Below, piece after piece: positions 38,199 through 61,076 of a stretch of DNA of 61,313 nt. The DNA is from Klebsiella pneumoniae (GTDB taxonomy: Bacteria; Pseudomonadota; Gammaproteobacteria; Ga0077536), in contig CAMATU010000002.1 in NCBI GenBank assembly GCA_945861225.1, positions 1 through 61,313 on the forward strand. The letters run 5' to 3'. Below the pieces are notes generated by a model. The model saw nothing but the letters and a program-made list of their open reading frames with translations, had not been told where the DNA came from and ran no database searches. Both the position numbers and the translations under genes were made by a program. Every line of letters begins with the position of its first letter. Position 1 is the first letter of the stretch.

Positions 38199-38214
38199 CA
38201 CAGGAATCCACCCC

Positions 38215-45273: not shown

Positions 45274-46062
45274 TTAAACCGTAATGCGACGGCGACGGCC
45301 GACCACGGCAAAACCTGCGAGCGCTGAAGCCAGCAGCGGCAACGCGGCTGGAGCCGGGACTGGGACAACTTCAAACAGGGTGTTGAAAGTCACCTTATCC
45401 TTGGCCGAGAGATTAAACGACAACGTTATCCCGATGTTGCTGTTCACACCCGGACCACCCGCGAGGAACGCGGGAAAACTCAGGCTGTCGTCAACGGCAT
45501 TGGCCGAACAGTTTGGATCGAGCGGTCCGCCGACGCACCCGAGGCTGATCCCAAACAGGTCAAGCAGCGTGACGCCGTCAATTTTGCCGGTGTACACGCC
45601 GGGCGATGCGCCTGGTGCCGACGACACATCAAGATCGGCCGTCACGTTCAGGTCGCCCAAATCGAATACGGTGGCAGCCAACTGCCCACGATACAAAGTT
45701 GGTCCCGTAACCACCGGCAGTACCGGCAGCAGAAGATTAACGGTGAAGTTCTGTGCCACGGCCGCAAGGTTGGTCAGGCTGATGGTGCCTGCGATCAGGG
45801 GATCCGGATCGAAGGTCAGATCCCAGGCGAACTCCCACTTGCCCGGATTGATCGTGCCAGCGCCCTGCGAGCGCCAGAGGTTGCCGGCCGCGCCATCGAG
45901 ATCCTCAAAGATTGCGCCATCGGTGATAGGAACGGTTTCAGCGTCGTTGCTGCCGACGACCGCCACTGTGAAATCAGGCTGTACCTGTACCACTGCCTGT
46001 GCCACGCCGGCCAGGCCCATCGAGGTCATCACTGCTAGTGAACGAATCCAGGTTCCACGCAT
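45274..46062 (-). CDS. Secreted protein of unknown family with VPxPA-CTERM-like sorting tail (paralog 1)
   Basis: Signal peptide MRGTWIRSLAVMTSMGLAGVAQA. The C-terminus is VPVPAPAALPLLASALAGFAVVGRRRR. GGGAGA RBS. Confidence 0.7.
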   Translation of the reverse strand: MRGTWIRSLAVMTSMGLAGVAQAVVQVQPDFTVAVVGSNDAETVPITDGAIFEDLDGAAGNLWRSQGAGTINPGKWEFAWDLTFDPDPLIAGTISLTNLAAVAQNFTVNLLLPVLPVVTGPTLYRGQLAATVFDLGDLNVTADLDVSSAPGASPGVYTGKIDGVTLLDLFGISLGCVGGPLDPNCSANAVDDSLSFPAFLAGGPGVNSNIGITLSFNLSAKDKVTFNTLFEVVPVPAPAALPLLASALAGFAVVGRRRRITV

Positions 46063-46338
46063 CGCTTCATTCTCCCTTGGTTGATTGCCGCGGATCTCCT
46101 ACGAGGGTTGTCCCGGACGGTTCTTTGACATGCTGGAAACAGTAACCCGGTGGTGTGACTGCTGAATGAAGACCGGATGAAGATTTGTGGTCAGCCGAAA
46201 GAAGTTGGATGAGGCAGGACAACCCGTCACAACTTTTTCACATTCGATGGTGGCCGGTATTTGCGCCCGGCATGCAGAACGGGGCGATCACAGCCCGAGC
46301 TATGGTCGCCCCGTATTCGAGAACCCGTGGGGCAGAGA

Positions 46339-47163
46339 TTAAGCGGCTTTGCGCCGCGCGCCGACAGCAATCAAGCCACCAAGTGCCGAGAACAGTAACG
46401 GCAATGCGGCGGGGACCGGCACCGGTACGACTTCGAACGTTGTATTGAACGTAACCTTGTCACCCGCCGACAGGCTGAAGCGCAACGTAGTGCCGATCGA
46501 CGAATTAACGGCTGGGCCCGGTGACAGGAAGCTCGGGTGGCCAAGGCTCGTTTCCGAAGTGCTGGCATTGCAGCCGACACCGCTGCAGTTCAGGGTCGTC
46601 GCGAGCAGATCGAGCAGATCGAGCAGATCGAGCAGATCGAGCAGCGAGAGCGCCATATTGCCGTCGGTGCGGCCCGCGTAAATCCCGGGTTGGGTTGCGC
46701 TGCTCGCCTCGCTGAACGTGGCGCTGCCGGAATTGTTGAAATCCTCAACCAGCGTGCTGATCGATCCGCGGTATGCGGTTGGCGCGGCAAGCGGGCTGAC
46801 GGGCAGCAGCAGATTAACCGAGAAATCACGGGTTGCAGCGGCCAGATTGCGAATGGAGAGGTTGCCGTTGATGAACGGATCCGGATCGAAGGTCAGGTCC
46901 CAGGTCATGAACCAGTTGGTGAAACCGGTCCCGCTACTGCCTGAGGTGCTGGTATCTCCCTTGAGCTTCCATACATTGCCGGCATCGCCATCGAGATCGA
47001 TCAACGTGGTGCCGGCTGAGGTGTACTGCGGAGCGGCGACGTTGTTAAAAGTGACCTGCAGATCGAACGCGGGTGGGTTCGGGTTAACCACCGCCGCAAG
47101 ACTCGGTCCCGCGCAACCTATCGCGGCAAGCGCCACGCAAGAACGCATTAGTTTTCCACGCAT
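46339..47163 (-). CDS. Secreted protein of unknown family with VPxPA-CTERM-like sorting tail (paralog 2)
   Basis: Signal peptide MRGKLMRSCVALAAIGCAGPSLA. It shares the blocks WDLTFDPDP, NLAA..(R/Q)(D/N)F(S/T)VNLLLPV and DKVTFNT.FEVVPVP with paralog 1. The C-terminus is VPVPVPAALPLLFSALGGLIAVGARRK. AAGGAG RBS. Confidence 0.7.
   Translation of the reverse strand: MRGKLMRSCVALAAIGCAGPSLAAVVNPNPPAFDLQVTFNNVAAPQYTSAGTTLIDLDGDAGNVWKLKGDTSTSGSSGTGFTNWFMTWDLTFDPDPFINGNLSIRNLAAATRDFSVNLLLPVSPLAAPTAYRGSISTLVEDFNNSGSATFSEASSATQPGIYAGRTDGNMALSLLDLLDLLDLLDLLATTLNCSGVGCNASTSETSLGHPSFLSPGPAVNSSIGTTLRFSLSAGDKVTFNTTFEVVPVPVPAALPLLFSALGGLIAVGARRKAA
46603..46644 (-). repeat. In-frame 9-bp tandem repeat (gagcagatc x 4.7) encoding (DLL)n
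   Basis: Direct reading gives gagcagatc repeated at 46603, 46612, 46621 and 46630, plus a partial copy. Paralog 1 has a single LLDL at the aligned position. Confidence 0.9.
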
Positions 47164-47370
47164 CTCTTTTTACTCCTTCTTGACTCCGGTAACGATGAAG
47201 GCGCGCGCTGCGACGCCTGTGTGGCTGTAGAGCTGGTGACCACGTTAAGTGCGGGGTGTTACTCAGGAGTGAAGATTCGATGAAGATTTCGATACAAAGG
47301 GACACACTTGGGAGCGTGCTGCGCGAAGAAAAAAAAATAGACCGGATTTGAAATATTTTCGCAGTCCTCG

Positions 47371-47432
47371 GTAGGCGCGGCTTTAGCCGCGAACAGCGCT
47401 GAATCGCCCCTCGCGGCTAAAGCCGCTCCTAC
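47371..47432. repeat. Family-A REP inverted pair
   Basis: gtaggcgcggctttagccgcgaacag at 47371-47396, and tcgcggctaaagccgctcctac at 47411-47432. Confidence 0.85.
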
Positions 47433-47574
47433 CGAAATGCCTGCTTGGCCTGGCCTGTCTCCCTAGCGACGCTTAAACCAATGCTTTTTCCCTTAAGTTA
47501 AATGCCACTCAGGCAATGCACCGTTGACACCTCGACTCGGATTATTTCAACCCCGGCCCGGATTTCAGCATGGG

Positions 47575-49212
47575 CTACAGCAGCTTATTCAGCCCCGGCT
47601 GCCCCACGATCAAACCGTATGCGGCCAGATCGAACAGCGCGAGCTCGGCCGACGGCACCGTGAAGACGGGGTCCGCCACGCGGGTCACCGCGCGGAAATC
47701 CGTGCGCCATTGATCGGGTGTGACAGTGCAGATCGCGTAACCCCGGTGCAGGCCATCGAAGTGACGGATATGGGGATTCGAAGGCAGCGTGAAATTCACC
47801 GCCGCCGCGTTGTTGTCGCCGAAGGAAGAGGAGATCCCGCTGCACACGAATTCCGCGCCGACGATTGGCGACTGCGCATCGCTGAAATCGCGCTTCAGAT
47901 TGGCAGCCCACGAGGAATGAATGTCGCCGCTCAGTACCACGGTGTTCGGAATTTGTGCGTCGTGCAGGAACTGCATGATCCGGTTTCGAGCGACCTGGTA
48001 ACCATCCCACGCATCGACATTGAAGAAGTTGACCGGCTGTCCGGTCAGCACGCCGAGATCCCACTGCATCATCATCACCTGCTGGGCGAGCACGTTCCAG
48101 GTCGCGTCACTGTGGCGCAGCTGATCAAACATCCAGGTCTCCTGCTCTGCACCGAGCAAGGTTGCTTCGGGATCGAGAATGGCCGGGCATTGCTGCAGGA
48201 TTTGCAGACCATCCGCACAGGGTTGGTCGCTGCGGAACTGTCGGGAATCGAGCACCAGGAACTGCGCGAGCCGGCCGTAACGTACGCGGCGGTACAGGCT
48301 GAGTTCACCCTGGCGCAGTCGCACCCCACGCTCAAGCGGCATGGTCTCGCGATAGACCTGATAGGCATTGGTGCGTCGTGCGAGAAAGGCCGCAGCCGTT
48401 TGATCGTCTTCGGGAATGAGGCCCGCATAGTTGTTATCGACCTCGTGATCGTCGCTCGTCACGATAAACGGAAACGCGGCGTGCGCATTCTGCAGATGCG
48501 GATCGAGACGATACAGTGCGTAGCGATTGCGGTAATCGCTGACTGAGTTGATCTCGGCACCGGTATGCCGTCGTGCGGCGGGGACTGCGGCATCCGCGCC
48601 GTATTCATAAATGTAATCCCCCACGTGCAGCACGAAATCGAGTTCCTGGGTGAGCATGTCGCGATAGGCGGCGTAGTAGCCCTGCTCATAGTGCTGGCAC
48701 GAAGCAAGTGCGAAGCGCAGATGCGGCACTCGCGCGCCAGCGCGGGGGAACGTGCGGGTGCGACCGATTCGACTGCGCGATCCGCGGTGCGAGAATTGAT
48801 AGTAGTACCACTGGTCGGGCTCGAGCCCGTTCACTGTCACATTCACCGCATGACCCTGTTCCGGTCGCGCGTCCACGTCGCCATCGCGCACGATGTGACG
48901 CATGGCCGGGTCGCGTGCCACGCGCCAGCGGAGCTCGTGCGAACGATTGCCCATGCCGCCCCCATTCAGGGGATCTGGCGCGAGGCGTGTCCATAACACC
49001 ACGCCGTGCGGGCTGGGGTCCCCCGAAGCGACGCCGAGCGTAAACAGCGAATCAGGTCGATCCTCGCCGTGCGCCCACGCGCTGCGCAGCGCACTCGGCA
49101 CGCAGGACGCGGCTGTGATGAGCGCTCCGCGCTGGATGAACTGGCGGCGCGGCTGATCAATTTCGCGCGTGTCGTCGGTTGGAATAGTGCGGTCCTCAAC
49201 AAGGTTGTCCAT
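47575..49212 (-). CDS. phoD: Alkaline phosphatase D family protein (PhoD), Tat signal
   Basis: Twin-arginine QPRRQFIQRGALITAAS, FTLGVASGDP, the metallophosphatase block HVGDYIYEY, and DDHEVDNNYA. Confidence 0.9.
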   Translation of the reverse strand: MDNLVEDRTIPTDDTREIDQPRRQFIQRGALITAASCVPSALRSAWAHGEDRPDSLFTLGVASGDPSPHGVVLWTRLAPDPLNGGGMGNRSHELRWRVARDPAMRHIVRDGDVDARPEQGHAVNVTVNGLEPDQWYYYQFSHRGSRSRIGRTRTFPRAGARVPHLRFALASCQHYEQGYYAAYRDMLTQELDFVLHVGDYIYEYGADAAVPAARRHTGAEINSVSDYRNRYALYRLDPHLQNAHAAFPFIVTSDDHEVDNNYAGLIPEDDQTAAAFLARRTNAYQVYRETMPLERGVRLRQGELSLYRRVRYGRLAQFLVLDSRQFRSDQPCADGLQILQQCPAILDPEATLLGAEQETWMFDQLRHSDATWNVLAQQVMMMQWDLGVLTGQPVNFFNVDAWDGYQVARNRIMQFLHDAQIPNTVVLSGDIHSSWAANLKRDFSDAQSPIVGAEFVCSGISSSFGDNNAAAVNFTLPSNPHIRHFDGLHRGYAICTVTPDQWRTDFRAVTRVADPVFTVPSAELALFDLAAYGLIVGQPGLNKLL

Positions 49213-49298
49213 GGCGATCTCCGGTGGCAGAAGAATTCGAGTGTTGATTACCTTAGAGGCTGCAGATGACTCCCTGAAGAACGGGGTGTTTCAGCTTC

Positions 49299-49316
49299 AT
49301 GACAAGTGGCTAACAG
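49299..49316 (-). promoter_or_regulatory. Pho-box candidate upstream of phoD (divergent region shared with 49406 gene)
   Basis: The minus strand reads CTGTTAGccacTTGTCAT with an 11-bp period. It lies about 90 nt upstream of ATG 49212. Confidence 0.45.
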
Positions 49317-49405
49317 TAGTCGTCTGCCAAGTGGTTCGCACGAATGTCACTATGCATCGGGTATGCTCCCAGCGGTCGTTCACACGGTTGTAGCGTTAAT
49401 CAGTC

Positions 49406-51262
49406 ATGGCTTGGCGCGCATGGATTACATTCCTGTTGGTTATCGCGCAGTGGATAGGCCTGGCGGGTGCGCACGCCGATTACCTCGATGACATCGGTTT
49501 TCGCGCGCTCGCAGTGGCGCTCGGCGCGAACCTTCCGAATGGGGTGAGCGTGCGCATTGATCAGGTCGAAGCACCGATCGGCGGTGGCGAGACGGACCCG
49601 ATCTATCGCGCCGATCCGGCCAATGCCGAATTCAGCGGCGTCACGTTTCACGATCAGTCGAGTGGCATCAATCCGTTGTTCTCCGGGCATGCCACGGGGG
49701 TCGCGGTATTGTTCGCCGGCACGAGTTCCATGACGCCTGGTGTGCAGCAGGTGGACAGTTACGAGGCGAACAGCTGGCTCACGCTCGTGCTGTTCAACGG
49801 CGGCGTGGGCTTGCAGCGACCCGTCACTGGCACCGGCTCACTCGCGAACCACAGCTGGGTGGGCGCGACGACCACCGCCGAACAGGCCGTCGATCTGCTG
49901 AATCGCCTGGACTGGTTGATCGACACTGACGACACTGCGCAGATCGTCGGCGTCAATAACAACGGCAACCCGTTGTTCTCGCATGCGTACAACGTGATTG
50001 GCGTCGCGCACACCGCCAACCTCACCACACAACTGACTGCCGCCCTCGATTCGTTCTATGTCGCTGGCCGGGCGCTCCCGCATCTCGTGGCGCCGCGTGG
50101 TTCGGTCAGCGCGGCGACCCCCGTGGTGACTGCTGCCGCCGCCTTTTTAATCGACAGCACAGCGGCCAACACACTCCCGGTCGAGGGCGTCAAAGCGCTG
50201 TTGATGGCGGGCGCCGATCGCGTCACCCGCAACACCGCAGCGGGCAACCTCGATCATTTTACCGGCACCACCGCCAATGGGCTCGATCCGCGTTATGGCG
50301 CGGGTCAGTTGAATGTGCTGCAGAGCTATACGCTGCTTGCGGCGGGTGAGAAGGCGAGTACTGAGGATGGCGGCGTGGGCGGCACTGCATCGGGATATGA
50401 CTACGACAATGCCTTCGGGGGTGCCTCAGGGGCGAATGCCACCGCAACGTATCCACTCGGCACCTTGATCCAGGCCGGAAAGTTGCAGGCGACGCTCGCG
50501 TGGCACGCGTTGATCGTGGATGACGCCGGCGCATTTGCGCCGACTTCGCGCGTGCTGCAGAACTTCAATCTGCAGCTCATCGACACCACAGCAGGTGGCA
50601 GCGCGCAGGTCGCGCTCTCGCAAAGTACACTGGACAATACCGAAACGCTGCACGTTGAAGTGCTCGCGGGCCGCAGTTACAGCCTCAAGGTGCTGAATGC
50701 CGGCGGCAATGTCAGCCGTGCTTACGCGCTCGCCTGGCGGCTTGAAGCGGATCGTGATCGCGATGGGGTGTTCGACAAGTTCGAGACCGGCACCTGCCCT
50801 GGTGTGAGCGATGCGGACAGTGATGACGACGGCCTGGCCGATGGCGCAGAAGACGTGAATTTCGATGGCCAGGTCAATCCCACGGAAACCAGCCCTTGCC
50901 TGCGCGATACCGATGGCGACGGCTTACAGGATGGGACGGAACGCGGCGTCACCACGCCGGTGCTCGATCCCGATGGCGCGGGGCCCCTGCTCGGCACGGA
51001 GATCAGCGTGTTCATCCCGGACGCGAATTCCGGCACTACCACCAATGCCACCAATGGCGATACCGATGCGGATGGGGCCAGCGACGGGAGCGAGGATCTG
51101 AATCGCAACGGCGCACTGGACGTCGGTGAATCCGATCCGAACGATGCCGGATCAACCCCCGCCACTGCGCACACCGTGCCGCTGTTGCCGCTGTGGATGT
51201 TCGGTGTACTCACTGTGCTGCTGTGGTTGATCGGTGCGCGTTGCGTGCGGATCAGGCGCTAA
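49406..51262 (+). CDS. Subtilisin-like (S8) domain protein with acidic Ca-binding (TSP3-like) repeats and CTERM sorting tail
   Basis: S8-like blocks are VRIDQVEA (Asp), SGHATGVAV (His), LANHSWVG (Asn) and GSVSAATPVVTAAAAFL (Ser). They are followed by repeats DADSDDDGLADGAED / DTDGDGLQDGTE / DTDADGASDGSED. The tail is VPLLPLWMFGVLTVLLWLIGARCVRIRR. Confidence 0.6.
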   Translation: MAWRAWITFLLVIAQWIGLAGAHADYLDDIGFRALAVALGANLPNGVSVRIDQVEAPIGGGETDPIYRADPANAEFSGVTFHDQSSGINPLFSGHATGVAVLFAGTSSMTPGVQQVDSYEANSWLTLVLFNGGVGLQRPVTGTGSLANHSWVGATTTAEQAVDLLNRLDWLIDTDDTAQIVGVNNNGNPLFSHAYNVIGVAHTANLTTQLTAALDSFYVAGRALPHLVAPRGSVSAATPVVTAAAAFLIDSTAANTLPVEGVKALLMAGADRVTRNTAAGNLDHFTGTTANGLDPRYGAGQLNVLQSYTLLAAGEKASTEDGGVGGTASGYDYDNAFGGASGANATATYPLGTLIQAGKLQATLAWHALIVDDAGAFAPTSRVLQNFNLQLIDTTAGGSAQVALSQSTLDNTETLHVEVLAGRSYSLKVLNAGGNVSRAYALAWRLEADRDRDGVFDKFETGTCPGVSDADSDDDGLADGAEDVNFDGQVNPTETSPCLRDTDGDGLQDGTERGVTTPVLDPDGAGPLLGTEISVFIPDANSGTTTNATNGDTDADGASDGSEDLNRNGALDVGESDPNDAGSTPATAHTVPLLPLWMFGVLTVLLWLIGARCVRIRR

Positions 51263-51495
51263 ATAGCCCGCACTGTAGGTGTGACAAACGCATGATTCGA
51301 CGCGGCATTAGGGATGCCGACAACTTCTATTCCCGTCATCCCGGAAAGTGCGTAGCACTTATCCGGGATCCATCTTGTCCTTCTGACGCCCTTGGATCCC
51401 GGGTCTGCGCGGCTAACGCCGCTTCGCCCGGGATGACGAGCCTAAAAATTTTCGTCACATCTCGCGCTTTGTTTTAATTGCAGTGCGGGCTATTT
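51261..51495. mobile_element. 235-bp MITE-like element bounded by perfect 15-bp terminal inverted repeats, internal family-C units
   Basis: aaatagcccgcactg (51261-51275) and cagtgcgggctattt (51481-51495). The interior holds family-C units at 51334-51371 and 51394-51438. It has no coding capacity. Confidence 0.4.
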
Positions 51496-51499
51496 AACG

Positions 51500-51685: not shown

Positions 51686-51765
51686 AGGGGCTACTCCGGG
51701 GTTATCTGCGCCCGACGATAGCCGCGTACTTTTGCATGCAGATGAAATGCGCCGGACAAAATTAT

Positions 51766-53316
51766 TTACGCGGGCACCGGACCAGGTCGCCCCGCTTCTA
51801 CTATCCACGTCGACAACGTACTGCACTTCGCGTCTAGCTGCTGCGGCTGATCCAGCACCCGCAGGTCGGTGCAGAGCCGCTGCGGGGTAACTTCGACCCG
51901 GCAATAACCACGATGCTGGCCGGTCGCGAGGTGAATGTGCGGCCCTTCAGCGAGCGCCGTCTGAATGCGATCTTCGGGCGGCGGATATGAGGTGATCGAG
52001 GTTGTGACGAATTCGGAGGCCACCGTCGGCGCGTTCTGCGCAGTGAAATCCTGTTTGAGATCGGCCACCCAGAAAGAATGCACATCGCCGCCGAACACGA
52101 CAGGGTTCGCGGCGCGCGTCGCGATCAACTGGTCGAGCAAACGCTGTCGCGCCGCCGGATAGCCATCCCAACCGTCGGAAAAAAACATTTCGCCGGCGCC
52201 GGCCTTGCCGTCGGACTGGGCCATCAACGTTGTCTGTGCGAGCAGATTCCACCGCGCTTTGCTCGTCGCGAGACCTGCTGCCAACCAATGTTCCTGACGT
52301 GTGCCCAGTAACGTGGCCGTCGGGTCCAGCCGCTGCGCGCAATTTTCAATCACCCGTGCGCCACCACGGCCAGGGGTCGGACACGGTTGCGGTGTCCGGT
52401 ACTGCCGCGTGTCGAGCAGATTCATTTCTGCGAGCTGGCCGAAGGTCGCACGCGCGTGCAGTCGCATGTCCGGCCCGAACGGCAGCATCGAACGGCGCAG
52501 TGGCATATGCTCGTAGTACGCCTGATACGCTGCCGCGCGACGGGCGCGGAACCAGCGCGGGTGATCGGCATTTTCCGAGCGATCATTCGCGTAATCGTTC
52601 TCGAACTCATGGTCGTCCCACATCAGGTACCACGGGTACGCCGCATGCGCACGTTGCAGATCAGGGTCTCCGCGATAGTGCGCAAAGCGGGCGCGGTAAT
52701 CCTCTAACGTGAACGGCTCACCCGCTTCGTGGCGACGCACCAGGTTGGCACCCCATGAAGTCTCATAGAGGTAGTCGCCGACATGCACGATGAAATCGAG
52801 ATCGTCGTCGAGCATGTGCCGGTAGGCCGAAAAATAACCGTGCTCGTAGTGCTGGCATGACGCGACGGCAAAGCGCAACAGCGCCACCTCGGCATTCGGT
52901 GCCGGCGCCGTGCGCGTGCGTCCCACCGGGCTCGTGGTGCTGCCGGCATGAAAGCGATACCAGTACGTGCGCGCTGGCAGCAGGGTGTCCACCTCGACAT
53001 GCACGCTGTGGCCCCAGTCAGGGGTGGCGTACGCCGTGCCGCTGGCAACGACACGCGCGAAACGCTCGTCTGCAGCGACTTCCCAAGTGACCGGCACAAT
53101 GATCGGGGGCATGCCACCGCCCGGCGCGCGCGGTTCGGGCGCAAGACGGGTCCAGAGCGCCACCCCCTGCGGAAGCGGGTAGCCGGAGGCGACACCGAGA
53201 CTGAAGGGATCTCCTGCGAAAGGCGGCGCCGCGTGCAGGCGCGGTACCGCCCCGGCCAGCAGCAGCCCACCGCATTGCGTCAGAAATGTGCGGCGGGATT
53301 TAATGCGCGTTGGCAT
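51766..53316 (-). CDS. phoD: Alkaline phosphatase D family protein (PhoD), Tat signal
   Basis: MPTRIKSRRTFLTQCGGLLLAGA, FSLGVASGYP, HVGDYLYE, WDDHEFENDYA. ATG 53316 overlaps the 3' end of the upstream gene by 17 nt. Confidence 0.9.
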   Translation of the reverse strand: MPTRIKSRRTFLTQCGGLLLAGAVPRLHAAPPFAGDPFSLGVASGYPLPQGVALWTRLAPEPRAPGGGMPPIIVPVTWEVAADERFARVVASGTAYATPDWGHSVHVEVDTLLPARTYWYRFHAGSTTSPVGRTRTAPAPNAEVALLRFAVASCQHYEHGYFSAYRHMLDDDLDFIVHVGDYLYETSWGANLVRRHEAGEPFTLEDYRARFAHYRGDPDLQRAHAAYPWYLMWDDHEFENDYANDRSENADHPRWFRARRAAAYQAYYEHMPLRRSMLPFGPDMRLHARATFGQLAEMNLLDTRQYRTPQPCPTPGRGGARVIENCAQRLDPTATLLGTRQEHWLAAGLATSKARWNLLAQTTLMAQSDGKAGAGEMFFSDGWDGYPAARQRLLDQLIATRAANPVVFGGDVHSFWVADLKQDFTAQNAPTVASEFVTTSITSYPPPEDRIQTALAEGPHIHLATGQHRGYCRVEVTPQRLCTDLRVLDQPQQLDAKCSTLSTWIVEAGRPGPVPA

Positions 53317-54730
53317 CTGAAAATCGTGGCCCCGAATTCGATTTCCGGAATCGCGTGAGACACACGCCGCCCAGCGCGAAGCCGATCCACGCTGCCGGCA
53401 GCGGCACTGGCGCAATCCGATAGACGATGCCGCCATTACCGTTCGCCGGGGTATTGGTCACCAGCGCATAGAGCTCACCTGTCGCATCTTCGCCAAAGCC
53501 GTGCACGGTGAGTCCATTGGGAAGCTTGCCATCGACGAACTGCGGCAACAGGAATTCATTGATCAAACCAGTGGTGAGATCGGCGTAGAACAGGCGACCG
53601 TCTACGCGCGGCGGCGCGTTGCGCAGCGCGAGATCGCCGAATACGTATTTGCCGTAGAGTTCGGGGATCGCGACACCGCGATAGACGAAGCCGCCGGTAA
53701 TGGAAATACCGTCGCCGTGATCGTATTCCAAGGCGCCGAGCGAACCGACGATGGGATCGATCAAATCCACGGAATCCCCTGGACTGCGTGCGCCGACATT
53801 GCCGGTCGCCCGATCAAACAGGAAATCCCCTTCCTTGATGGCCCAGCCATAGTTGCCGCCGAGCTCCACACGATTGATTTCCTCAACATTGCGCTGGCCG
53901 ACATCAGCGAGGATCAGATCGCCGGTGACCCGATCGAAGCTGAAGCGGTAGGGATTGCGGAAACCGTACGCGAAAGTCTCCGCCACCTGGCCCGCACCTT
54001 GAAACGGATTGGTGGTGGGGATTCGATACTGACCATTGGCACTGACGGGATTTGCGCTGCCCGCAGTCACTGCCGGATCGAGAGGATCGATGCGCAGCAT
54101 CTTGCCGAGCGGGGTACTCAGGTTCTGCGCATTGCCGCCGGGTTCGAGGTGACTCGGACCGACATCGTTCGCGTTGCCGCCATCGCCGAGTCCCAGATAC
54201 AGCAGGCCGTCGTGACCGAAGGCCAGGGTGCCGCCGTTCATCTTCCACTCTGTGACGACATTCTGGTAACCCTGGGTCGCATTATTCGGTGCTGCGTAAG
54301 TCGGTGTGCTGCCCACGGGGATCGGTTCACTGGTGTAGGTGTACAACGAGCGATAGCCCGCGCTGGTTGGTGTGCTGAAGCCGGGATGAAAAGCTAGACC
54401 TAGAAAACCGCGCTCATCATTTGCGTTGGCCGTGTTCAAAGGCGGCGCGACACGGCTGCGAATATCCAGCACCGTGGTTGGCGCGAGCTGGCCGTTTTGC
54501 AGCGCGAGTAACAGCCCATTCTGATCAACCACAAACAAGCGACCGGCATCGCCCGGCGCGCTGATCGCGTAATCCGGCGCGGCGAGGCCGGTTGCAATTG
54601 ATTCCAGATGAACGGCGATCGTGCCGCGCGTGATGGCCGGCAGCAACGGGCCGGCGAACGCGGCGTCAGGCAGCAAACACAAAATCGCGAGAGCGGAGCT
54701 AGGTAGGGATCGGCGTGTGTAGGTGGGCAT
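53300..54730 (-). CDS. PQQ-dependent sugar (glucose/sorbosone) dehydrogenase-like beta-propeller with CTERM sorting tail
   Basis: Signal peptide, ERGFLGLAFHPGF, GLGDGGNAND, LGGNYGW. The tail is APVPLPAAWIGFALGGVCLTRFRK. Confidence 0.8.
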   Translation of the reverse strand: MPTYTRRSLPSSALAILCLLPDAAFAGPLLPAITRGTIAVHLESIATGLAAPDYAISAPGDAGRLFVVDQNGLLLALQNGQLAPTTVLDIRSRVAPPLNTANANDERGFLGLAFHPGFSTPTSAGYRSLYTYTSEPIPVGSTPTYAAPNNATQGYQNVVTEWKMNGGTLAFGHDGLLYLGLGDGGNANDVGPSHLEPGGNAQNLSTPLGKMLRIDPLDPAVTAGSANPVSANGQYRIPTTNPFQGAGQVAETFAYGFRNPYRFSFDRVTGDLILADVGQRNVEEINRVELGGNYGWAIKEGDFLFDRATGNVGARSPGDSVDLIDPIVGSLGALEYDHGDGISITGGFVYRGVAIPELYGKYVFGDLALRNAPPRVDGRLFYADLTTGLINEFLLPQFVDGKLPNGLTVHGFGEDATGELYALVTNTPANGNGGIVYRIAPVPLPAAWIGFALGGVCLTRFRKSNSGPRFSDANAH

Positions 54731-54957
54731 GGTTTTGGACTCAGTGTCTTGGTTACGCTGGATATCAGGAACGGCGAGCCGGTTGCCGCCAGCGAATTGT
54801 ACGGCGCAGCGTACGGGTTTTAGTTTTCACTTGGATGACAGAGCGCAGGAACTTCAGGAAAGCGCGGGCCGGGGTATTTTCCGACATAGATTGAGAGACG
54901 CCGGCACTGCGGCCGGCGTGCCATCCCGACCTGGCAACGGTCCCGTCGCTCGCCAAG

Positions 54958-55278
54958 GTGACTCACGCGCTGGTCCCGTTAGTGATTTTCTTCTGCGTGG
55001 TGTGTGCGGCACCGGCGCGCGACTTACGCGAGCGTTTTTGGCAATTCACGCTTGCGTTGCCAGTGGCGCTGGTGGTCCTCACCCTGACCACCCCGTTTCA
55101 GTTAGTCGGCTTGATCGAGATGGCGATTCAGCAGCAAGCGGAGCAGCTCGGGATCGAACGCGTTCCATCGCTCGCGCTCATCTGGATGGTGGCAATGGAA
55201 GGCGGAAGTCGCAGGGTTTTTCCAATCGCAGCGGCGTGGTGCACGCCTGCGCAAACTCTTGCACAGACCTGTCGATAA
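54958..55278 (+). CDS. Hypothetical small membrane protein (106 aa)
   Basis: Coding-like third-position GC and two hydrophobic segments; GTG start. No recognisable domain, so confidence is low. Confidence 0.3.
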   Translation: MTHALVPLVIFFCVVCAAPARDLRERFWQFTLALPVALVVLTLTTPFQLVGLIEMAIQQQAEQLGIERVPSLALIWMVAMEGGSRRVFPIAAAWCTPAQTLAQTCR

Positions 55279-55377
55279 CCAGTAGACACAGGCAACGGTC
55301 GAGGTGGCAGGATGAAATGGACTGCGCTACTAATCGGACTCAGCATCGCGTGAAATTCCTCGGCGAAGGAGGATTGC

Positions 55378-55722
55378 GTGCAGCAGGCGGCGACCGAACT
55401 CGAGATCAATCTCTCGTCTGGGGTGTATACCGAACGCGCGCAGGTGAGCGCGCCGCTCAAGCTCCGCATTCCCACCGGCATTAACCCGAATGCCTACGGC
55501 GCGTGTCTGCAGATCCAGGGCAAGGATCCCTCGCGCAATCTGATCAACACGGTTGCCAGCATGCGAGAGTGCCAGCGGGCGGCGCGCACCACGCGCTTGG
55601 TGGCGGCGACCTCCGCCACCGCCAAGCACATCGCGAGCGAAGTCGATACCACGTTCTACGAGTCCTGTGTTAAGAACCAAATCGAGGTTGAGGTGTTTCT
55701 GCTTACTGCAGGACTCGATTAA
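55378..55722 (+). CDS. Hypothetical Cys-containing protein; possibly the mature part of an exported protein starting at 55312 (see findings)
   Basis: Strong coding-like codon bias. GTG 55378 is preceded by AAGGAGGA. An in-frame lipoprotein-like signal peptide (ATG 55312) lies upstream, separated by a single TGA. Confidence 0.45.
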   Translation: MQQAATELEINLSSGVYTERAQVSAPLKLRIPTGINPNAYGACLQIQGKDPSRNLINTVASMRECQRAARTTRLVAATSATAKHIASEVDTTFYESCVKNQIEVEVFLLTAGLD

Positions 55723-56184
55723 CGGACAGCTCCTCTTTGGCCGAAGGCGTTACGATCGACAAAGGCGGTGTGATTCGCACAGCCCACGGCGTGCACCTGC
55801 CAGACCCAGCAAGGCGGAGCTGTTGTCGAGAATATCCGTCATACGATCTGCGCTGCCGAAGTGATCAAAACTGAGGAGTTCTGCTGGGCTGGAGGCATTC
55901 CCGAGTACCGGCATCGTCGCACCATCCACAAGACGCATGAACGCGGTGCTGCTGTCGACGACCGACAAATAACAGACATCAAGTACGGCGATGCACTAAT
56001 TTTCAAGTGACCTCAAAGCAGGTGTCATTCGCAAATGAAGCAGACTAGCAAGGACAAGAAACTCCCGCTTTGAGCCCGAACAAATTTCCGAAGCACTTAA
56101 AATCACGACAAAAATGTGACGTGTAAGTGAAAATTTCCTAGCGCTCATCGTTTTGCGCGTTTCATACCCTGCGGAGCGCCGCTG

Positions 56185-56224
56185 CCGTCACGTCTTGGTC
56201 ACATAAGCGTCAATCGGGTGTCAC
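56185..56224 (+). promoter_or_regulatory. Double Pho box (four 7-bp repeats, 11-bp period) upstream of phoX
   Basis: CCGTCACgtctTGGTCACataaGCGTCAAtcggGTGTCAC. It ends about 160 nt upstream of ATG 56386. Confidence 0.6.
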
Positions 56225-56385
56225 TTTGCCCCGGCACAATCCTGCCCAGTACCTCGCCGACCTCACGATTTACCGTTATCCAACCGTAAGAGCGATAGCG
56301 CCGCGCTAACTGCGGGACGCTTGGGCCGGCGTGCAGGTCTGACGATCAATCATTCACTCACGAACTATAGAGATGAGGGTTCTCA

Positions 56386-58779
56386 ATGAAAGGCAATAAG
56401 CATCCGCAGAACGATGTCACGATCAATCCGTCAGGTAATCCCTCGATCCGCGATCTAATCTCGCAGATCGATCTGGATCGCCGACACTTTCTGAGTACCG
56501 CAGTTCACGCCTCGGCGCTGGCTGCGGTGAGTGGCCTGTCTACCGCCGGCTTACTGCTGCCTGGTACGGTGGAAGCTGCGCCAATTCTGCCGAGCAATGG
56601 TTTCGGCGGGATCGGTTTTGAGAGCATTGCAGCGAAGCTCGCACCAGTGGCGAATTCGGTAGAAGTGCCAGCCGGGTACACCGTTGAACTTCTCGCTGCA
56701 TGGGGACAACCGATCATGCCGGGCGCACCGGACTGGAATCCGGATGCGACGCAAACGGCCGCAGATCAGCTCAAGCAATTCGGCATGCATAACGATGGGA
56801 TGCATTTTTTCTCATTTCCGACGCGCGGCGGACTTTCCAATGTGCGTGGAATTCTGTGTGTGAACAATGAATACACCCACGAAGGAATTCTCCACGGTGC
56901 TGATGGGTTAGTCGGCACACTCGGTGTGACGATCGCGAAAGTGCGCAAGTCGCAAGCCGGCCACGGCGTTTCCATCATGGAAGTTCGCAAGAGCTTCGGC
57001 CCGGATGGGGACAAATGGGGAGTCGTGAAGACTTCACGCTATGGACGCCGCCTCTCCGCGAACACCCCGATGAGAATGTCCGGCCCCGCCGCCGGGCACG
57101 CGCTCTTAAAGTCCAAGAAGTTCTCGATCACGCCCACGGGTTCGACCGAGATCGGTTTCAACGATGGCTTCACTGCTTTCGGCACGCACAATAATTGCGC
57201 ACACGGCTATACGCCGTGGGGCACCTACCTCACCTGCGAAGAGAACTGGAACGGTAACTTCGGATCCAATGCCGGTGATCCTGCGCCGACAGATTCCTCA
57301 GTCGCGAACGGTCAGGTGCGTTACGGTGTTTCAGCGGCCGGATTCAACTATCAATGGCATGTCGCCGATCCGCGCTTCAATGCGCGCACCAATCCGCTCG
57401 AACCGCATCTCTACGGGTGGGTCGTCGAAGTCGATCCGTTTGATCCCAACAGCGTACCGGTCAAGCGTACTGCACTGGGGCGCATGAAAAAAGAAAGTGC
57501 GCATGTCGCGCTGAGCAAGGATGCAGAGAACACCCCAAAGAGAGTCGCGTTCTATATCGGCGACGACGAACGTAATGAGTATGTCTATAAGTTTGTCTGC
57601 GCTGGCGCATTCAATCCAACCAATCGCGCCGCGAATCGGGATCTGATGGATGCCGGTATTCTCTATGTCGCGAAATTCACGAATACCGCAGGCGCCAGTA
57701 ACGGGACTTTCCGAGGACAGTGGCTTGCGTTGGTGCCGGACACGCTCTCCGTGATTTCCAATGGCAATGGCGGCTTCTTCAAACTGGGCGAACTCACGCA
57801 GTTCGGTGCGCCGGTGCAAGGCACGGCCAATCCGAATGACGCGGAAGTCCAGGCATTGATTCTCATCAAGACCCGGCAGGCTGGCGACGCCGTCGGTGCG
57901 ACGATGATGGATCGTCCAGAATGGACTGCACTGCGCACTTACAACAATGGACATGGCAATGGTCCTTTAGGCTATGACGCGCAGCACCCGCTCGAACTTT
58001 ACTGCACGCTGACTAATAACAGCCGGCGCGGCGGTGGTGGGACTATCTCCGTGAACAACCCGAACGGTACGACCGGTGCCGGCACGGCGCGACCACCAGT
58101 CGATGTCGCGAATCCACGGCCGGACAACGACTATGGACACATCATCCGTTGGCGCGAAGACGGAAACTTCGTCACCGCCACCGGTTTTGAGTGGGATATC
58201 TTCACGATTTGTGGCGACACGCAGGTGCCGGTCACCAAGACGCTTGCCGCGAACTACCTGAAGGACAACTTCATCGGGGTGGCGACCGCTGACTCGGATT
58301 TCAACAAGAAGATCTACGAAGGCAGTATCAATGACGCGCCGAACGGCAGTGCCGACTTTGGGGCGCCTGATGGCCTGTGGTTCGACCAATTCGGTCGGCT
58401 ATGGATACAGACTGATCAAATTGGCGATGCCAGCGGCGATTTTGCCAACGTCGGTGCGAATGTCATGTGTTGCGCCGATCCGAACACCAAGGAAATTCGC
58501 CGTTTCCTGACCAGCCCACGGAACTGCGAAGTGACGGGCGTCATGAATACGCCAGATGGCAAGACCATGTTCGTCGGTATCCAGCATCCGGGTGAAGATT
58601 CACTGGCTGCGAATCCCACTGAGTTCAGCAATTGGCCACAAAGTCAGTTCGATAAGAACAGCGCGGGTGAACCATTGGCAGTGATCAACAAAGTGGTCCA
58701 GCCGATCGGTGCCAATATCCGCCCGCGCTCTTCGGTGCTGGTCATTACCCGCACCGACGGCGGGGTGATTGGCGCCTGA
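56386..58779 (+). CDS. phoX: PhoX-family alkaline phosphatase (DUF839), Tat signal
   Basis: DLDRRHFLSTAVHASALAAVSG. YTPWGTYLTCEEN is the hallmark motif. Also FDQFGRLWIQTD; 797 aa. Confidence 0.9.
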   Translation: MKGNKHPQNDVTINPSGNPSIRDLISQIDLDRRHFLSTAVHASALAAVSGLSTAGLLLPGTVEAAPILPSNGFGGIGFESIAAKLAPVANSVEVPAGYTVELLAAWGQPIMPGAPDWNPDATQTAADQLKQFGMHNDGMHFFSFPTRGGLSNVRGILCVNNEYTHEGILHGADGLVGTLGVTIAKVRKSQAGHGVSIMEVRKSFGPDGDKWGVVKTSRYGRRLSANTPMRMSGPAAGHALLKSKKFSITPTGSTEIGFNDGFTAFGTHNNCAHGYTPWGTYLTCEENWNGNFGSNAGDPAPTDSSVANGQVRYGVSAAGFNYQWHVADPRFNARTNPLEPHLYGWVVEVDPFDPNSVPVKRTALGRMKKESAHVALSKDAENTPKRVAFYIGDDERNEYVYKFVCAGAFNPTNRAANRDLMDAGILYVAKFTNTAGASNGTFRGQWLALVPDTLSVISNGNGGFFKLGELTQFGAPVQGTANPNDAEVQALILIKTRQAGDAVGATMMDRPEWTALRTYNNGHGNGPLGYDAQHPLELYCTLTNNSRRGGGGTISVNNPNGTTGAGTARPPVDVANPRPDNDYGHIIRWREDGNFVTATGFEWDIFTICGDTQVPVTKTLAANYLKDNFIGVATADSDFNKKIYEGSINDAPNGSADFGAPDGLWFDQFGRLWIQTDQIGDASGDFANVGANVMCCADPNTKEIRRFLTSPRNCEVTGVMNTPDGKTMFVGIQHPGEDSLAANPTEFSNWPQSQFDKNSAGEPLAVINKVVQPIGANIRPRSSVLVITRTDGGVIGA

Positions 58780-58889
58780 GGCAGGCGGCAATTCGGGCAG
58801 ACGCAACCACCTAAGCTCGGGACCGCTGCATTCGGCGGCGGTCCTCAATTGAATGAGAGGAAACCTAGATGAATATCAAGAATCTTATC

Positions 58890-58909
58890 GGCACGGCACG
58901 GCACGGCAC
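58890..58909 (+). repeat. Pentanucleotide tandem repeat (GGCAC)x4 inside a signal-peptide coding region
   Basis: Read directly as ggcacggcacggcacggcac. It lies between ATG 58869 (GAGGAA RBS) and the mature-domain frame that begins at 58924. Confidence 0.9.
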
Positions 58910-58923
58910 TGCTTGCCAGCGGC

Positions 58924-59544
58924 ATGATCACCGTGTCCGCACAGGCAGCCGTGGTGACCACCAATGCCGGCTTCGGCGTCTTTGAAGATTTCGAAGGCTT
59001 CGATGGCCTCGTCACCAAAGGACCACAGGCGTTGAATGCGGGAGCAGTCGTCACTTCCACGATCTTCTCGACGATCGGGGCTTTCGGCGTTGACTTAGTC
59101 AACAATGGAACGTGGGGCGCGGCGAACAATTTCGCCGGGATCGGCGATTTGTCGTCAATCCCGCTCACCGATGAAGGCTTCGTCGGCAGCATGACCTTTG
59201 ATCTCGACGTCGCGCGCAGTGGGGTGGGCGCAGATTTCAGCATCTATCACGACGGTTTGGAATCCGCCGTAATCACTATTGAAGCCCTCGGGGTGGGTGC
59301 CGAAGTTCTGGAGACCGCAACCTTCGCGGTGGACTTTAATGATCCACTCGGAACAAACACTGCGCTGTTCCGCGGCTTCGTCCATAACACGGCGGATATC
59401 GTTGCCCTGCGCGTCTCGGGAAATGGCTTCGTGGTGGATAACTTAAGTGCCGTGCCGGTGCCGGCAGCGCTGCCGCTGATGCTGGGCGGACTCGCGGCGT
59501 TGGGCGCCCATCGGCGTCGCCGTCACGCGGTCGTTTCCGTTTGA
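58924..59544 (+). CDS. Secreted protein of unknown family with CTERM sorting tail; 5' end out of frame with its signal-peptide start at 58869
   Basis: The ORF starts mid-signal-peptide (MITVSAQA-AVV). The tail is VPVPAALPLMLGGLAALGAHRRRR. See the repeat finding. Confidence 0.6.
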   Translation: MITVSAQAAVVTTNAGFGVFEDFEGFDGLVTKGPQALNAGAVVTSTIFSTIGAFGVDLVNNGTWGAANNFAGIGDLSSIPLTDEGFVGSMTFDLDVARSGVGADFSIYHDGLESAVITIEALGVGAEVLETATFAVDFNDPLGTNTALFRGFVHNTADIVALRVSGNGFVVDNLSAVPVPAALPLMLGGLAALGAHRRRRHAVVSV

Positions 59545-59583
59545 ATGAGTCCACGAAGTAATCGACTCGTGGAGACGTGCGTG

Positions 59584-59614
59584 AGCTGGGGGAACATTGA
59601 GGCATCCCCCAGCT
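59584..59614 (+). terminator. Hairpin (10-bp stem) after the 58924-59544 gene
   Basis: agctggggga-(11 nt)-tcccccagct. No clear T-tract follows. Confidence 0.3.
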
Positions 59615-59660
59615 TGAGCCGGTTCGACGGGCTGCATAATCTTTCTGCGCCCCGCTTGAT

Positions 59661-60503
59661 ATGACGTGCGTAAAACTGTCTGGATGGTCGCCAGCGCTTC
59701 TTTGGACAACGCTGGCGTTGACCCCCGTGGTGGTGTGCGCTGAACAGCTGACACTGACGCCGAGTAAAGACACCACGTTAAGTGAGGATGATTTCAACTA
59801 CTCAAACGGTGCAGGTCCTTCCGTTTTTATTGGAACGACGGCCGGCGGCCGGCGTCGCGCCTTATTGAAGTTCGATCTCTCGGGGTTGCCGGTCAGCGCC
59901 CAGATCACCAGCGCACAGCTGAGATTCTTTATCGATAGAAACGGCACAGGATCGGGCGCGGATTCCGCAACCCTGCACCGGATGCTCGCGGCATGGGACG
60001 AAGGGACTTCGTTTGCCACTGGCGGCACCGGCACGCAAGCTACCGAGATGGACGCGACATGGCAGTACCGTGTGTACGGCAACCCACCTGCTGTTCCCCG
60101 CATCGAATGGTCCAATCTCGGCAGTGATTTCGCATCGTCCGCGTCTGCAGCGATTTCGATTCTCAGTTTAGGCGCTTATACATTCTCAGCGACACCCACG
60201 CTCGTCGCGGATATTCAGGGCTGGGTTGTCGCGCCAGCCAATAATCATGGGTGGGTGTTTATTGGGCCGGAGGATGGTCGTTCACAAACCGTACGCCGCA
60301 TCCTGAGTCGAGAATCCAGTGACGTCGCGAATCGTCCGACCTTGACCATTGATTACATCGTCCCGCCAGTGACGATCCAGACGGTCCCCTTGCCAACCTG
60401 GGCGCTTTGGGTGCTCGGTGTGCTCGTATGCGCTGGAGGTGCTCGGGTGGCTCGACGCTCGATGAGACTCGGAAGTCTGAGTCACGAAAATCAGCCTGGA
60501 TAG
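59661..60503 (+). CDS. DNRLRE-domain protein with CTERM sorting tail
   Basis: Signal peptide. PSKDTTLSE...RRRALLKFDLSGLPVSAQITSAQLRF...WDEG matches the DNRLRE domain pattern. The tail is VPLPTWALWVLGVLVCAGGARVARR. Confidence 0.7.
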   Translation: MTCVKLSGWSPALLWTTLALTPVVVCAEQLTLTPSKDTTLSEDDFNYSNGAGPSVFIGTTAGGRRRALLKFDLSGLPVSAQITSAQLRFFIDRNGTGSGADSATLHRMLAAWDEGTSFATGGTGTQATEMDATWQYRVYGNPPAVPRIEWSNLGSDFASSASAAISILSLGAYTFSATPTLVADIQGWVVAPANNHGWVFIGPEDGRSQTVRRILSRESSDVANRPTLTIDYIVPPVTIQTVPLPTWALWVLGVLVCAGGARVARRSMRLGSLSHENQPG

Positions 60504-60602
60504 CGCGGCCAAGCGAAGTCAAGGTTAATCAACTCATTCCCGCGTAGCACTTTAGAGGCCTACCACGTGATTTTTATTTAGTCACTAAGACTGGTGTTTA
60601 GA

Positions 60603-60631
60603 CCGGCGTGGTCAAAAATAAGCCACGCCGG
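60603..60631. terminator. Bidirectional terminator hairpin between convergent genes
   Basis: ccggcgtgg-tcaaaaataag-ccacgccgg, flanked by a local AT-rich stretch. Confidence 0.45.
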
Positions 60632-60644
60632 CATCACTTTTGCC

Positions 60645-61076
60645 TCAAGCTGAATGAACCGACCTCCTGAGCAACTTGCGACGCGCGATCGTCGCGCATG
60701 CCACAGCGCTCGCGAGTACCGCGAACCGCGGGAGCATCGGTACTTTCTGCGCACTGACGACGGGTGCCGTTTGCACTTGAAAATCGCAGTCAAAGCCCAT
60801 GCCTGGTACCGCCGGCGAGGTATCTTGAATCCAGAAAGTGTAGGTGCCCGCAGCAAGTGGCGGGATGAACCCTGTGGCACCAAAGCCAGTGCCCATGGCG
60901 GCGAGGATCTCGGCACCCGCATCGACATGCGTGTACCCAAGCAATCCGACCGGGTTCTGAGTGTCGGAAGGAACGGTCATCTGCGCGCCCGCTCGGACGG
61001 CAATGAAAGACCGATTGCTGCCAGGGAAATTTTCCGCGCCCACGCGGATCGCCGCGAGGACATGCTGATTCGGCAC
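60645..61076 (-). pseudogene. 5'-truncated gene for a CTERM-tailed secreted protein
   Basis: The tail is VPMLPRFAVLASAVACATIARRKLLRR. There is no signal peptide. The reading frame is closed by a stop 5 codons upstream of the GTG, and sequence composition changes at about 61080. Confidence 0.45.

Follow-up and report, generated by a model that had tools for sequence, protein, structure and literature searches.

Here, we investigated a 61,313-nucleotide stretch of DNA (contig CAMATU010000002.1, positions 1 to 61,313; hereafter the window), in which the region from 44.6 to 61.1 kb forms the outer section of a supercluster for phosphate acquisition in an uncultured gammaproteobacterium. Seven open reading frames (ORF1 to ORF7) in this region end in a C-terminal tail that consists of a "VP..P" motif, a hydrophobic helix, and a cluster of Arg/Lys residues, and they are interleaved with the genes of three alkaline phosphatases that carry twin-arginine translocation (Tat) signals, two PhoD and one PhoX (Table 1). 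The seven ORFs and the C-termini that a preliminary description of the stretch had quoted for them were all recovered at the coordinates it gave. Among every stop-to-stop ORF in the window, only these seven have the tail layout; they all fall at 45.3-61.1 kb, and the first 45 kb contain no such ORF. We consider it probable that the supercluster combines Tat phosphatases with interleaved Sec-exported proteins that bear glutamate-less PEP-CTERM-type sorting signals, are induced by PhoB, and are processed by an exosortase.

Table 1. Genes and Pho-box-like sites of the phosphate-acquisition supercluster, numbered from the first base of the window (aa, amino acids; nt, nucleotides)
Feature	Position	Strand	Description
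ppx	27239-28813	+	Pfam Ppx-GppA; upstream edge of phosphate cluster
ppk1	29146-31218	-	Pfam PP_kinase; polyphosphate metabolism with ppx
Pho-box-like direct repeat GTCATCTACTTGTCAC	32183-32198	+	KTCAY-N6-KTCAY; 49 nt upstream of pstS
pstS-pstC-pstA-pstB-phoU	32247-38937	+	Pfam PBP_like_2, BPD_transp_1 (twice), ABC_tran, PhoU; high-affinity phosphate transporter operon
GDPD gene 3' remnant	44666-45025	+	last ~119 codons; between TetR gene and ORF1
ORF1	45274-46062	-	262 aa; Sec signal peptide; passenger family unassigned; tail VPVPAPAALPLL...GRRRR, VPLPA-CTERM-like below cut-off
Three 11-bp-phased TTCAT/GTCAC repeats	46155-46181	-	93-119 nt upstream of ORF1
ORF2	46339-47163	-	274 aa; ORF1 paralogue (44% identity); tail VPVPVPAALPLL...GARRK
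11-bp-phased TCTTCAT/TCTTCAC repeats	47269-47293	-	~106 nt upstream of ORF2; period-11 tandem repeat 47270-47293
phoD1	47575-49212	-	Pfam PhoD E 4e-108 and PhoD_N; PhoD phosphodiesterase/alkaline phosphatase, Tat-exported, no tail
Weak Pho-box match CTGTTAGCCACTTGTCAT	49299-49316	-	divergent phoD1/ORF3 promoter region; three mismatches to E. coli consensus; not significant alone
ORF3	49406-51262	+	618 aa; signal peptide; weakly S8-like N-domain; thrombospondin-3-type Ca-binding repeats; tail VPLLPLWMFGVL...RCVRIRR
phoD2	51766-53316	-	Pfam PhoD E 6e-108; 516 aa from Met at 53316, in agreement with public gene call; Tat-exported
ORF4	53300-54730	-	476 aa; GSDH/PQQ-type sugar dehydrogenase (Pfam GSDH E 6e-24); signal peptide; tail VPLPAAWIGFALGGVCLTRFRK
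Extra Pho-box-like match	56116-56131	-	upstream of phoX
Four 11-bp-phased GTCAC/GTCAA repeats	56187-56224	+	~160 nt upstream of phoX; tandem Pho-box-like array
phoX	56386-58779	+	Pfam PhoX E 6e-144; Tat-exported alkaline phosphatase, no tail
ORF5	58869-59544	+	PhoX-partner family; VPLPA-CTERM tail; body frame from 58924
ORF6	59661-60503	+	280 aa; DNRLRE/CBM96 domain; signal peptide; tail VPLPTWALWVLGVLVC...RVARR, IPTL-CTERM-like below threshold
ORF7	60645-61076	-	143 aa; 5'-truncated remnant; no signal peptide; tail VPMLPRFAVLASAV...RRKLLRR
Uma2-family endonuclease gene start	61192-61313	+	right border of island; Pfam Uma2 E 2e-33 on the L002 copy

The three phosphatases are secure. Their Pfam scores lie above gathering (PhoX, PF05787, 481 bits; PhoD, PF09423, 362 and 361 bits), the motifs PRRQFI, SRRTFL, and DRRHFL can be read at their N-termini, and none of them has a tail, as the preliminary description had held. 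The gene order that precedes them, according to Pfam, is bipA, ppx, ppk1, pstS-pstC-pstA-pstB-phoU, a Fer2/molybdopterin oxidoreductase, an RPE65-type oxygenase, and a TetR regulator. The assignment to the Gammaproteobacteria comes from BipA, which shares 83-90% identity with proteins of gammaproteobacterial metagenome-assembled genomes. The end of ORF4 overlaps phoD2 by 17 nt (53300-53316), which makes an operon likely, and the two genes probably form one transcription unit; phoX, ORF5, and ORF6 share a strand and are separated by 90 and 117 nt. The locus has the transporter, the enzymes, the Tat signals on PhoX and PhoD, and the 11-bp-phased Pho-box-like repeats of known Pho-regulon loci, from which it differs in the interleaved proteins with exosortase-type tails and in a phoX gene that has a conserved tail-anchored partner gene.

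Signal peptides, judged by eye, are present on ORF1 to ORF4 and ORF6, on ORF5 only after a frameshifting repeat has been removed, and not on ORF7. Where seven secreted proteins had been proposed, five are intact and predicted to be exported, while ORF5 is frameshifted within its signal peptide and ORF7 has lost its own. The ORF1 family is rare, with five homologues that all have VPVP/VPLP tails. For ORF3, earlier described as an S8-like protease with Ca-binding repeats, the repeats are real (CglD-type repeats, E 8.8e-21), but the match to Peptidase_S8 (PF00082) covers the Ser region only and reaches 15.1 bits (E 0.014) against a gathering score of 21.8; the dentilisin PrtP model gave E 0.001. 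A single-sequence AlphaFold2 model of the ORF3 N-domain was unusable (pLDDT 37), and sequence searches of solved structures with ORF1, ORF3, and ORF5 returned no meaningful matches. The assignments of ORF4 as a PQQ (pyrroloquinoline quinone)-type dehydrogenase and of a DNRLRE domain (CBM96/DNRLRE) to ORF6 were confirmed by Pfam.

In the PEP-CTERM/EpsH (XrtA) exosortase model (Haft et al. 2006; PMC1569441), proteins are sorted by a tail at the extreme C-terminus. The window proteins resemble this system in the combination of Pro motif, transmembrane helix, and basic cluster at that position, in their N-terminal signal peptides and varied passengers, and in the clustering of several copies. Scores against the curated models differ from tail to tail. 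TIGR03370 (VPLPA-CTERM; curated cut-off 25.35 bits) matched ORF5 with 36.0 bits for the full protein and 39.7 bits for the isolated tail, ORF2 with 20.9 and 25.8, and ORF1 with 22.3 and 22.8, and did not match ORF3, ORF4, ORF6, or ORF7. With cut-offs of 16 bits for TIGR02595 and 20.7 bits for PF07589, the PEP-CTERM models gave 19.8 (ORF1) and 20.2 bits (ORF5) for isolated tails with TIGR02595 and 23.7 bits for ORF5 with PF07589; full-protein scores were 13.9-15.2 (TIGR02595) and 13.6-20.3 (PF07589), ORF4 reached 14.3 with PF07589, and ORF3, ORF6, and ORF7 had no match to either model. The tails of ORF3, ORF4, ORF6, and ORF7 match VPAMP-CTERM, IPTL-CTERM, or PEP-CTERM weakly. The single shared tail of the preliminary description is therefore a common layout in seven ORFs, not one family. 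Its VPLPA-CTERM assignment, against which failure in such models had been named as counting, stands for ORF5, is borderline for ORF2, and falls short for ORF1 and for the four proteins that pass nothing. The ORF1/ORF2 and ORF5 families do share with VPLPA-CTERM proteins an ending that is nearly always VPVP/VPLP-AALPLL. We know of no cognate enzyme for VPLPA-CTERM.

Two tail sub-classes are visible in the window, and their processing by one enzyme or by two are both possible. Two sorting systems might operate in parallel, in which ORF1, ORF2, ORF5, and perhaps ORF4 (VPVPAALPLL / VPLPAAW) would pass through a VPLPA/PEP-CTERM-type exosortase and ORF3, ORF6, and ORF7 (VPLLPLW, VPLPTWAL, VPMLPRF) through an IPTL-CTERM-type enzyme, IPTL-CTERM presumably being paired with exosortase H. 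An ad hoc hidden Markov model (HMM) of ORF5-family tails splits ORF5, ORF2, and ORF1 (50.9, 36.3, and 19.2 bits) from ORF4, ORF7, ORF3, and ORF6 (5.7, 0.6, -2.9, and -8.3 bits). Tails of the second class share an "IP.L..W" look (ORF6, ORF3, ORF7, and the ORF6 homologues), and among loci from other genomes used for comparison, designated by L-numbers, such tails (ORF6 homologues and a nuclease in L015) repeatedly match IPTL-CTERM with 14.5-19.8 bits and the midcut-by-XrtH model weakly. Both classes also occur together in L016, L018, L052, and L080, where an ORF5 homologue with PEP-CTERM is found with an ORF6 homologue tailed (I/V)PLPxWA(L/V). We nevertheless find a second system rather unlikely. 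Every IPTL-CTERM score stays below the cut-offs of 20.5 (TIGR04174) and 20.8 bits (PF18203), with ORF6 at 14.9 and 13.9 bits, respectively, no match for ORF3 or ORF7, and a maximum of 19.8 bits for related tails elsewhere; neither ad hoc class accommodates ORF3 or ORF4 well; and the ORF6 homologue carries PEP-CTERM in other Burkholderiales (L021-L024), so that the classes interchange on one passenger. In the literature searched, we found only incidental mention of VPLPA-CTERM and IPTL-CTERM and no paper that treats an exosortase together with XrtH.

The strongest indication of what the tails do comes from homologues of the passengers. Canonical PEP-CTERM signals stand at the same junction in homologues of ORF5 (about 50 loci), ORF4 (46 of 77), ORF6 (four loci), and ORF7 (one locus). 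The motif of the ORF5 family is xPVP in 101, xPEP in 66, and xPLP in 15 of 213 members; tails of the VPVP/VPLP-AALPLL kind are found in gammaproteobacterial and methanotroph-like genomes and canonical VPEP in Betaproteobacteria, whose members pass TIGR02595 (21-25 bits against the cut-off of 16). The ORF4 homologues, 61-72% identical and drawn from 80 metagenome loci, include 77 complete C-termini, and those with PEP-CTERM have it at a "GGIVY.I..VPEP" junction where ORF4 itself reads GGIVYRIAPVPLPAAW. Other C-termini show type IX secretion-like endings or different C-terminal domains, the endings of the VYF..L type being what we take to be type IX secretion domains. ORF6 homologues have either PEP-CTERM (the Burkholderiales loci above) or "(I/V)PLPxWAL" tails, and the full-length ORF7 homologue in L016 has the PEP-CTERM tail SPVPEPSMALLWALGL. 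The L015 nuclease (ExeM/NucH) ends in VPMLPNWAMLL..RRR, and its C-terminal 140 aa are 57% identical to the stalk and tail of ORF3; the NCBIfam extracellular-exonuclease model that matches its group is named exonuc_ExeM-GG, and members of the ExeM group presumably end in a GlyGly-CTERM anchor. Near phoX in related genomes, VPVPA-type tails are also borne by a choice-of-anchor I protein (L015) and a phytase-like protein (L026). Families of this choice-of-anchor kind likewise have one passenger with different tails by lineage, as seen for the ORF4 family and for the L015 nuclease and choice-of-anchor I protein; the swap in the window differs in that it goes to glutamate-less tails and is concentrated in a phosphate locus.

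Because the tails trade places with validated sorting signals at a fixed junction, an export and attachment signal is a better reading than a generic membrane anchor, and the window tails are, as far as sequence comparison goes, best described as glutamate-less relatives of PEP-CTERM. We infer that the tails are cleaved or otherwise processed in this organism. The sorting role first proposed for them gains from the homologues of ORF4 to ORF7, while only ORF5 itself clearly passes the VPLPA-CTERM model. A layout of signal peptide, passenger, helix, and basic cluster would also fit single-pass, type I inner-membrane proteins with periplasmic domains that stay uncleaved and act as helpers beside periplasmic PhoD and PhoX, and such plain stop-transfer anchors would agree with a window that encodes no exosortase and with tails that lack the Glu of the PEP motif and mostly fail the curated models. 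We regard this alternative as improbable, given that a Pro-x-Pro directly before the helix is kept across unrelated passengers, that the same position elsewhere holds bona fide PEP-CTERM, type IX-looking endings, or other C-terminal domains, and that ORF5 passes TIGR03370, a curated sorting-domain model. Independently of these alternatives, phosphate-releasing enzymes that bear tails were noted in relatives (L015, 907-2511 and 14508-17984; L026, 6962-8407), and the neighbourhood of the tailed proteins in L015 holds TatC, a 5'-nucleotidase, a metallophosphoesterase, and PhoU.

The ORF5 family links such tails to phoX well beyond this contig. In 61 of 80 genomes, the gene directly after phoX is a member, and in a reciprocal look-up, four of four ORF5-family members picked without reference to PhoX lay 24-115 nt downstream of a PF05787 gene, with a weak CBM96-type gene next in line in at least two of these loci; an ORF6 homologue follows the ORF5 homologue in 16 loci. 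Clustered at 50% identity, the family counts at least 479 representatives with E <= 1e-10; its members are about 210-240 aa long, those that bear source names are all "hypothetical", and neither a Pfam passenger domain nor an NCBIfam family above its cut-off was found for it. An AlphaFold2 model of a family member (pLDDT 86, pTM 0.76) consists of a beta-sandwich followed by a C-terminal helix (197-219), and its Foldseek matches (E 6e-5 to 3e-3, with low TM-scores because the terminal helices were included) are carbohydrate-binding modules (CBM4, 6, 11, 22, 29, and 32), lectin domains, the Kgp adhesin domain, and the surface B12-capture protein BtuJ1. The predicted fold of the family is accordingly like that of a carbohydrate-binding module. 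Cyanobacterial PEP-CTERM genes beside phoX were considered as further members and rejected, as no membership was detectable. The literature searched held neither a paper that links PEP-CTERM to PhoX or the Pho regulon nor a description of the pairing of phoX with this family.

Taken together, the locus suggests the following sequence of events. Under phosphate limitation, PhoB would bind the 11-bp-phased (G/T)TCA(C/T) repeats and switch on pstS, phoX-ORF5-ORF6, ORF1, and ORF2, and probably ORF4-phoD2. The tail proteins would cross the inner membrane through Sec and be retained there by the C-terminal helix and basic cluster, until an exosortase-family enzyme encoded elsewhere in the genome reads VP(V/L)P, cuts off the anchor, and passes the protein to the surface or exopolysaccharide layer. 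This would give the PQQ dehydrogenase, the S8-like protein, and the two proteins with binding modules a surface or matrix location, where ORF4 could make sugar acids that dissolve mineral phosphate, and ORF3 (S8-like) together with the CBM-like ORF5 and ORF6 could serve to capture substrates, process them, or keep PhoX close to the cell.

Several observations weigh against this reading, some of them on the side of sorting. The Glu of Pro-Glu-Pro, near-invariant in PEP-CTERM, is replaced in seven of seven tails by Val, Leu, Leu-Leu, or Met-Leu (VPVP, VPLP, VPLLP, VPMLP); ORF3, ORF4, ORF6, and ORF7 pass no curated C-terminal sorting model; and two of the seven tail genes (ORF5 and ORF7) are defective. 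Neither the Pfam tables of called genes nor a jackhmmer search over all six-frame ORFs that started from a Pfam-verified exosortase (237 bits) revealed an exosortase in the 61-kb window, as the preliminary description had stated, and the window also differs from typical PEP-CTERM settings in having no exopolysaccharide genes. On the side of regulation, the pattern KTCAY-N6-KTCAY occurs nine times in the window against 1.49 expected, with none of 100 shuffles reaching nine, yet its design drew on the sites at pstS, phoX, ORF1, and ORF2, so that this enrichment is partly circular. The E. coli consensus (CTGTCAT-N4-CTGTCAT, at most three mismatches) was found six times against 3.6 expected and was rejected as not significant, only half-sites lie upstream of ORF3 and ORF4, and KTCAY-N6-KTCAY finds nothing upstream of ORF6. 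Two wider associations also had to be given up: the ORF1/ORF2 family is not a general phosphate-linked family (five homologues, one of them beside a sulfate ABC transporter), and ORF4-phoD2 is not a conserved pair (PhoD near an ORF4 homologue in none of 80 loci). By this comparison, the phosphate association of ORF1/ORF2 and of ORF4 is lineage-specific.

In favour of a phosphate response, seven of the nine KTCAY-N6-KTCAY matches are intergenic, six of these upstream of pstS, phoX, ORF1, or ORF2, and in 76 other genomes, used as an independent check, the 300 nt that precede phoX have 0.79 matches per kb, about 22 times the density of the other 1.42 Mb (0.035 per kb). A sigma-54 upstream element is typical of proteobacterial PEP-CTERM genes (PMC1569441); the window genes have Pho-box-like repeats upstream instead, and the corresponding sigma-54/PrsR-type motif (TGGCAC-N5-TTGCW, at most two mismatches) was found 29 times in the window against 37 expected and in none of the tail-gene promoters. 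The Pho-box-like sites of the preliminary description are borne out in part: repeats of this kind precede pstS, phoX, ORF1, and ORF2, ORF3 and ORF4 have half-sites, and the E. coli-type box shows no enrichment. Its proposed link to phosphate starvation is upheld by the context (ppx, ppk1, pstSCAB-phoU), by the repeats at these four genes, and by the conserved pair of phoX and tail protein, and is narrowed by the restriction of the ORF1/ORF2 and ORF4 links to this lineage. Induction of these genes by phosphate starvation is what the arrangement leads us to infer.

An exosortase does occur close to phoX in other genomes. A PF09721 gene (~235 bits) lies 4-5.5 kb from phoX in Dechloromonas agitata (L079, 3899-9651) and Dechloromonas sp. 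ARDL1 (L050, 4557-5705), so that Dechloromonas has both the pair of phoX and an ORF5-family gene and a verified exosortase. Adjacency to phoX as a general rule was rejected, since it is seen in two of 80 loci, both Dechloromonas. In D. agitata, the exosortase is situated inside an exopolysaccharide gene cluster divergent from phoX, whose order, with translations read by eye and only the exosortase checked against a model, is peptidyl-prolyl isomerase-like, polysaccharide export, chain-length and ATPase-like, exosortase, and EpsI-like. For D. aromatica, an epsH exosortase and sixteen PEP-CTERM proteins have been reported (PMC2907700).

The locus is partly decayed in this contig, with a frameshift in ORF5 and truncations of ORF7 and the GDPD gene. 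The true start of ORF5 is the ATG at 58869, which encodes MNIKNLIG..., and the body is out of frame with it; close homologues start with MNIKNLIGT(A/G)LLASSM...SAQA|AVV. A perfect (CGGCA)x4.2 tract at 58889-58909, within the signal-peptide codons, shifts the frame, and in a DNA alignment with L093 the window has exactly 10 extra bases, equal to two repeat units. The four-copy allele also occurs in two other assemblies (three in total); the frame would be kept with two copies, as in one close homologue, or with five. Judged by its sequence, the tract could be a slipped-strand on/off switch, or ORF5 could be a plain pseudogene. ORF7 starts right after stop codons and aligns only from about residue 100 of the full-length L016 homologue, with about 90 N-terminal residues missing. 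The GDPD remnant was recognized by blastx (46% identity over 119 aa) through the C-terminus of a 460-aa ORF in L029, which matches PF03009 GDPD. Given this decay, the whole might be a remnant without a current coordinated role, its clustering due to shared history (duplication, rearrangement); the frameshift of ORF5 in three independent assemblies, the truncated ORF7, the GDPD remnant, and a possible second ORF7-like fragment with an in-frame stop at ~55828-56100 would all suit such a history. Against this, intact reading frames and good signal peptides are found in five tail genes, both phoD genes, and phoX, the Pho-box-like repeats are preserved, and the same module is intact in many other genomes, and we therefore judge a mere remnant to be very unlikely.

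Three further observations concern single genes of the island. The stretch at ~55828-56100 (- strand), interrupted by an in-frame stop, weakly resembles the N-terminal half of the ORF7-family protein of L016 (33% identity over 93 aa) and may be a second decayed copy of that family; apart from it, the 1.65 kb that separate ORF4 from phoX are empty. ORF2 holds a perfect in-frame 9-nt repeat (CGAGCAGAT x4.8, + strand) at 46602-46644, which encodes an (LLD)n run absent from its paralogue ORF1 and is a second slippage-prone tract in a tail gene. The GDPD remnant represents one more phosphate-scavenging enzyme of the cluster.

Exosortase cargo proteins are numerous and mostly of unknown function, and their usual context is biofilm or floc formation under sigma-54 control; in waters and soils, PhoX ranks among the chief alkaline phosphatases. 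Neither the principle of sorting nor the VPLPA-CTERM model is novel, and the window tails are variants of this known kind. What appears to be new is the presence of exosortase-type cargo inside a phosphate-scavenging locus with Pho-box-like promoters, the widespread dedicated partner gene of phoX, and the replacement of VPEP by VP(V/L)P on four or more unrelated passenger families in this lineage. If exosortase processing under PhoB control is correct, a phosphate-controlled cargo set that includes nutrient-scavenging enzymes would be a second physiological role for the exosortase system.

Tentatively, and going further than the reading of this locus that we favour, we suggest that PhoX might work throughout with a dedicated, exosortase-sorted, CBM-shaped partner of the ORF5 family, often followed by a CBM96/DNRLRE protein, as an unrecognized branch of the Pho regulon that would place phosphate scavenging in the surface or exopolysaccharide layer across hundreds of proteobacterial and some planctomycete and verrucomicrobial lineages. 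The VP(V/L)P tails would then belong to an exosortase system with shifted specificity, and the partner in this contig may be switched by (CGGCA)n slippage. The site and mode of PhoX action are suggested by the near-obligate pairing of its gene with that of a small, tail-anchored binding protein, and this pairing is directly testable in cultured Dechloromonas, Aquabacterium, Roseateles, and Methylomonas; the ORF5 family, with its many representatives and no model in Pfam or NCBIfam, merits a model of its own.

Some minor features of the window remain to be mentioned. Rfam and tRNA scans of the window returned nothing, and sigma-70 promoter and terminator scans stayed at or below shuffle expectation. 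A further Pho-box-like repeat (TTCATAAAGCCTTCAT, 41895-41910) lies just upstream of a 73-aa ORF without family match (41956-42177), downstream of the molybdopterin oxidoreductase gene. The public gene call places a 368-aa ORF on the + strand over ORF7 (60654-61313; L002, 4788-5891), whose first ~180 residues are Arg-rich antisense read-through, with the real Uma2 start at ~61192. REP-like (repetitive extragenic palindromic) GC-rich palindromes with the core GCGGCTTTAGCCGC / GCGGCTAAAGCCGCTCCTAC occur in intergenic positions at ~39000-39025, ~47370-47435, and ~51390-51430, including the space between ORF2 and phoD1.

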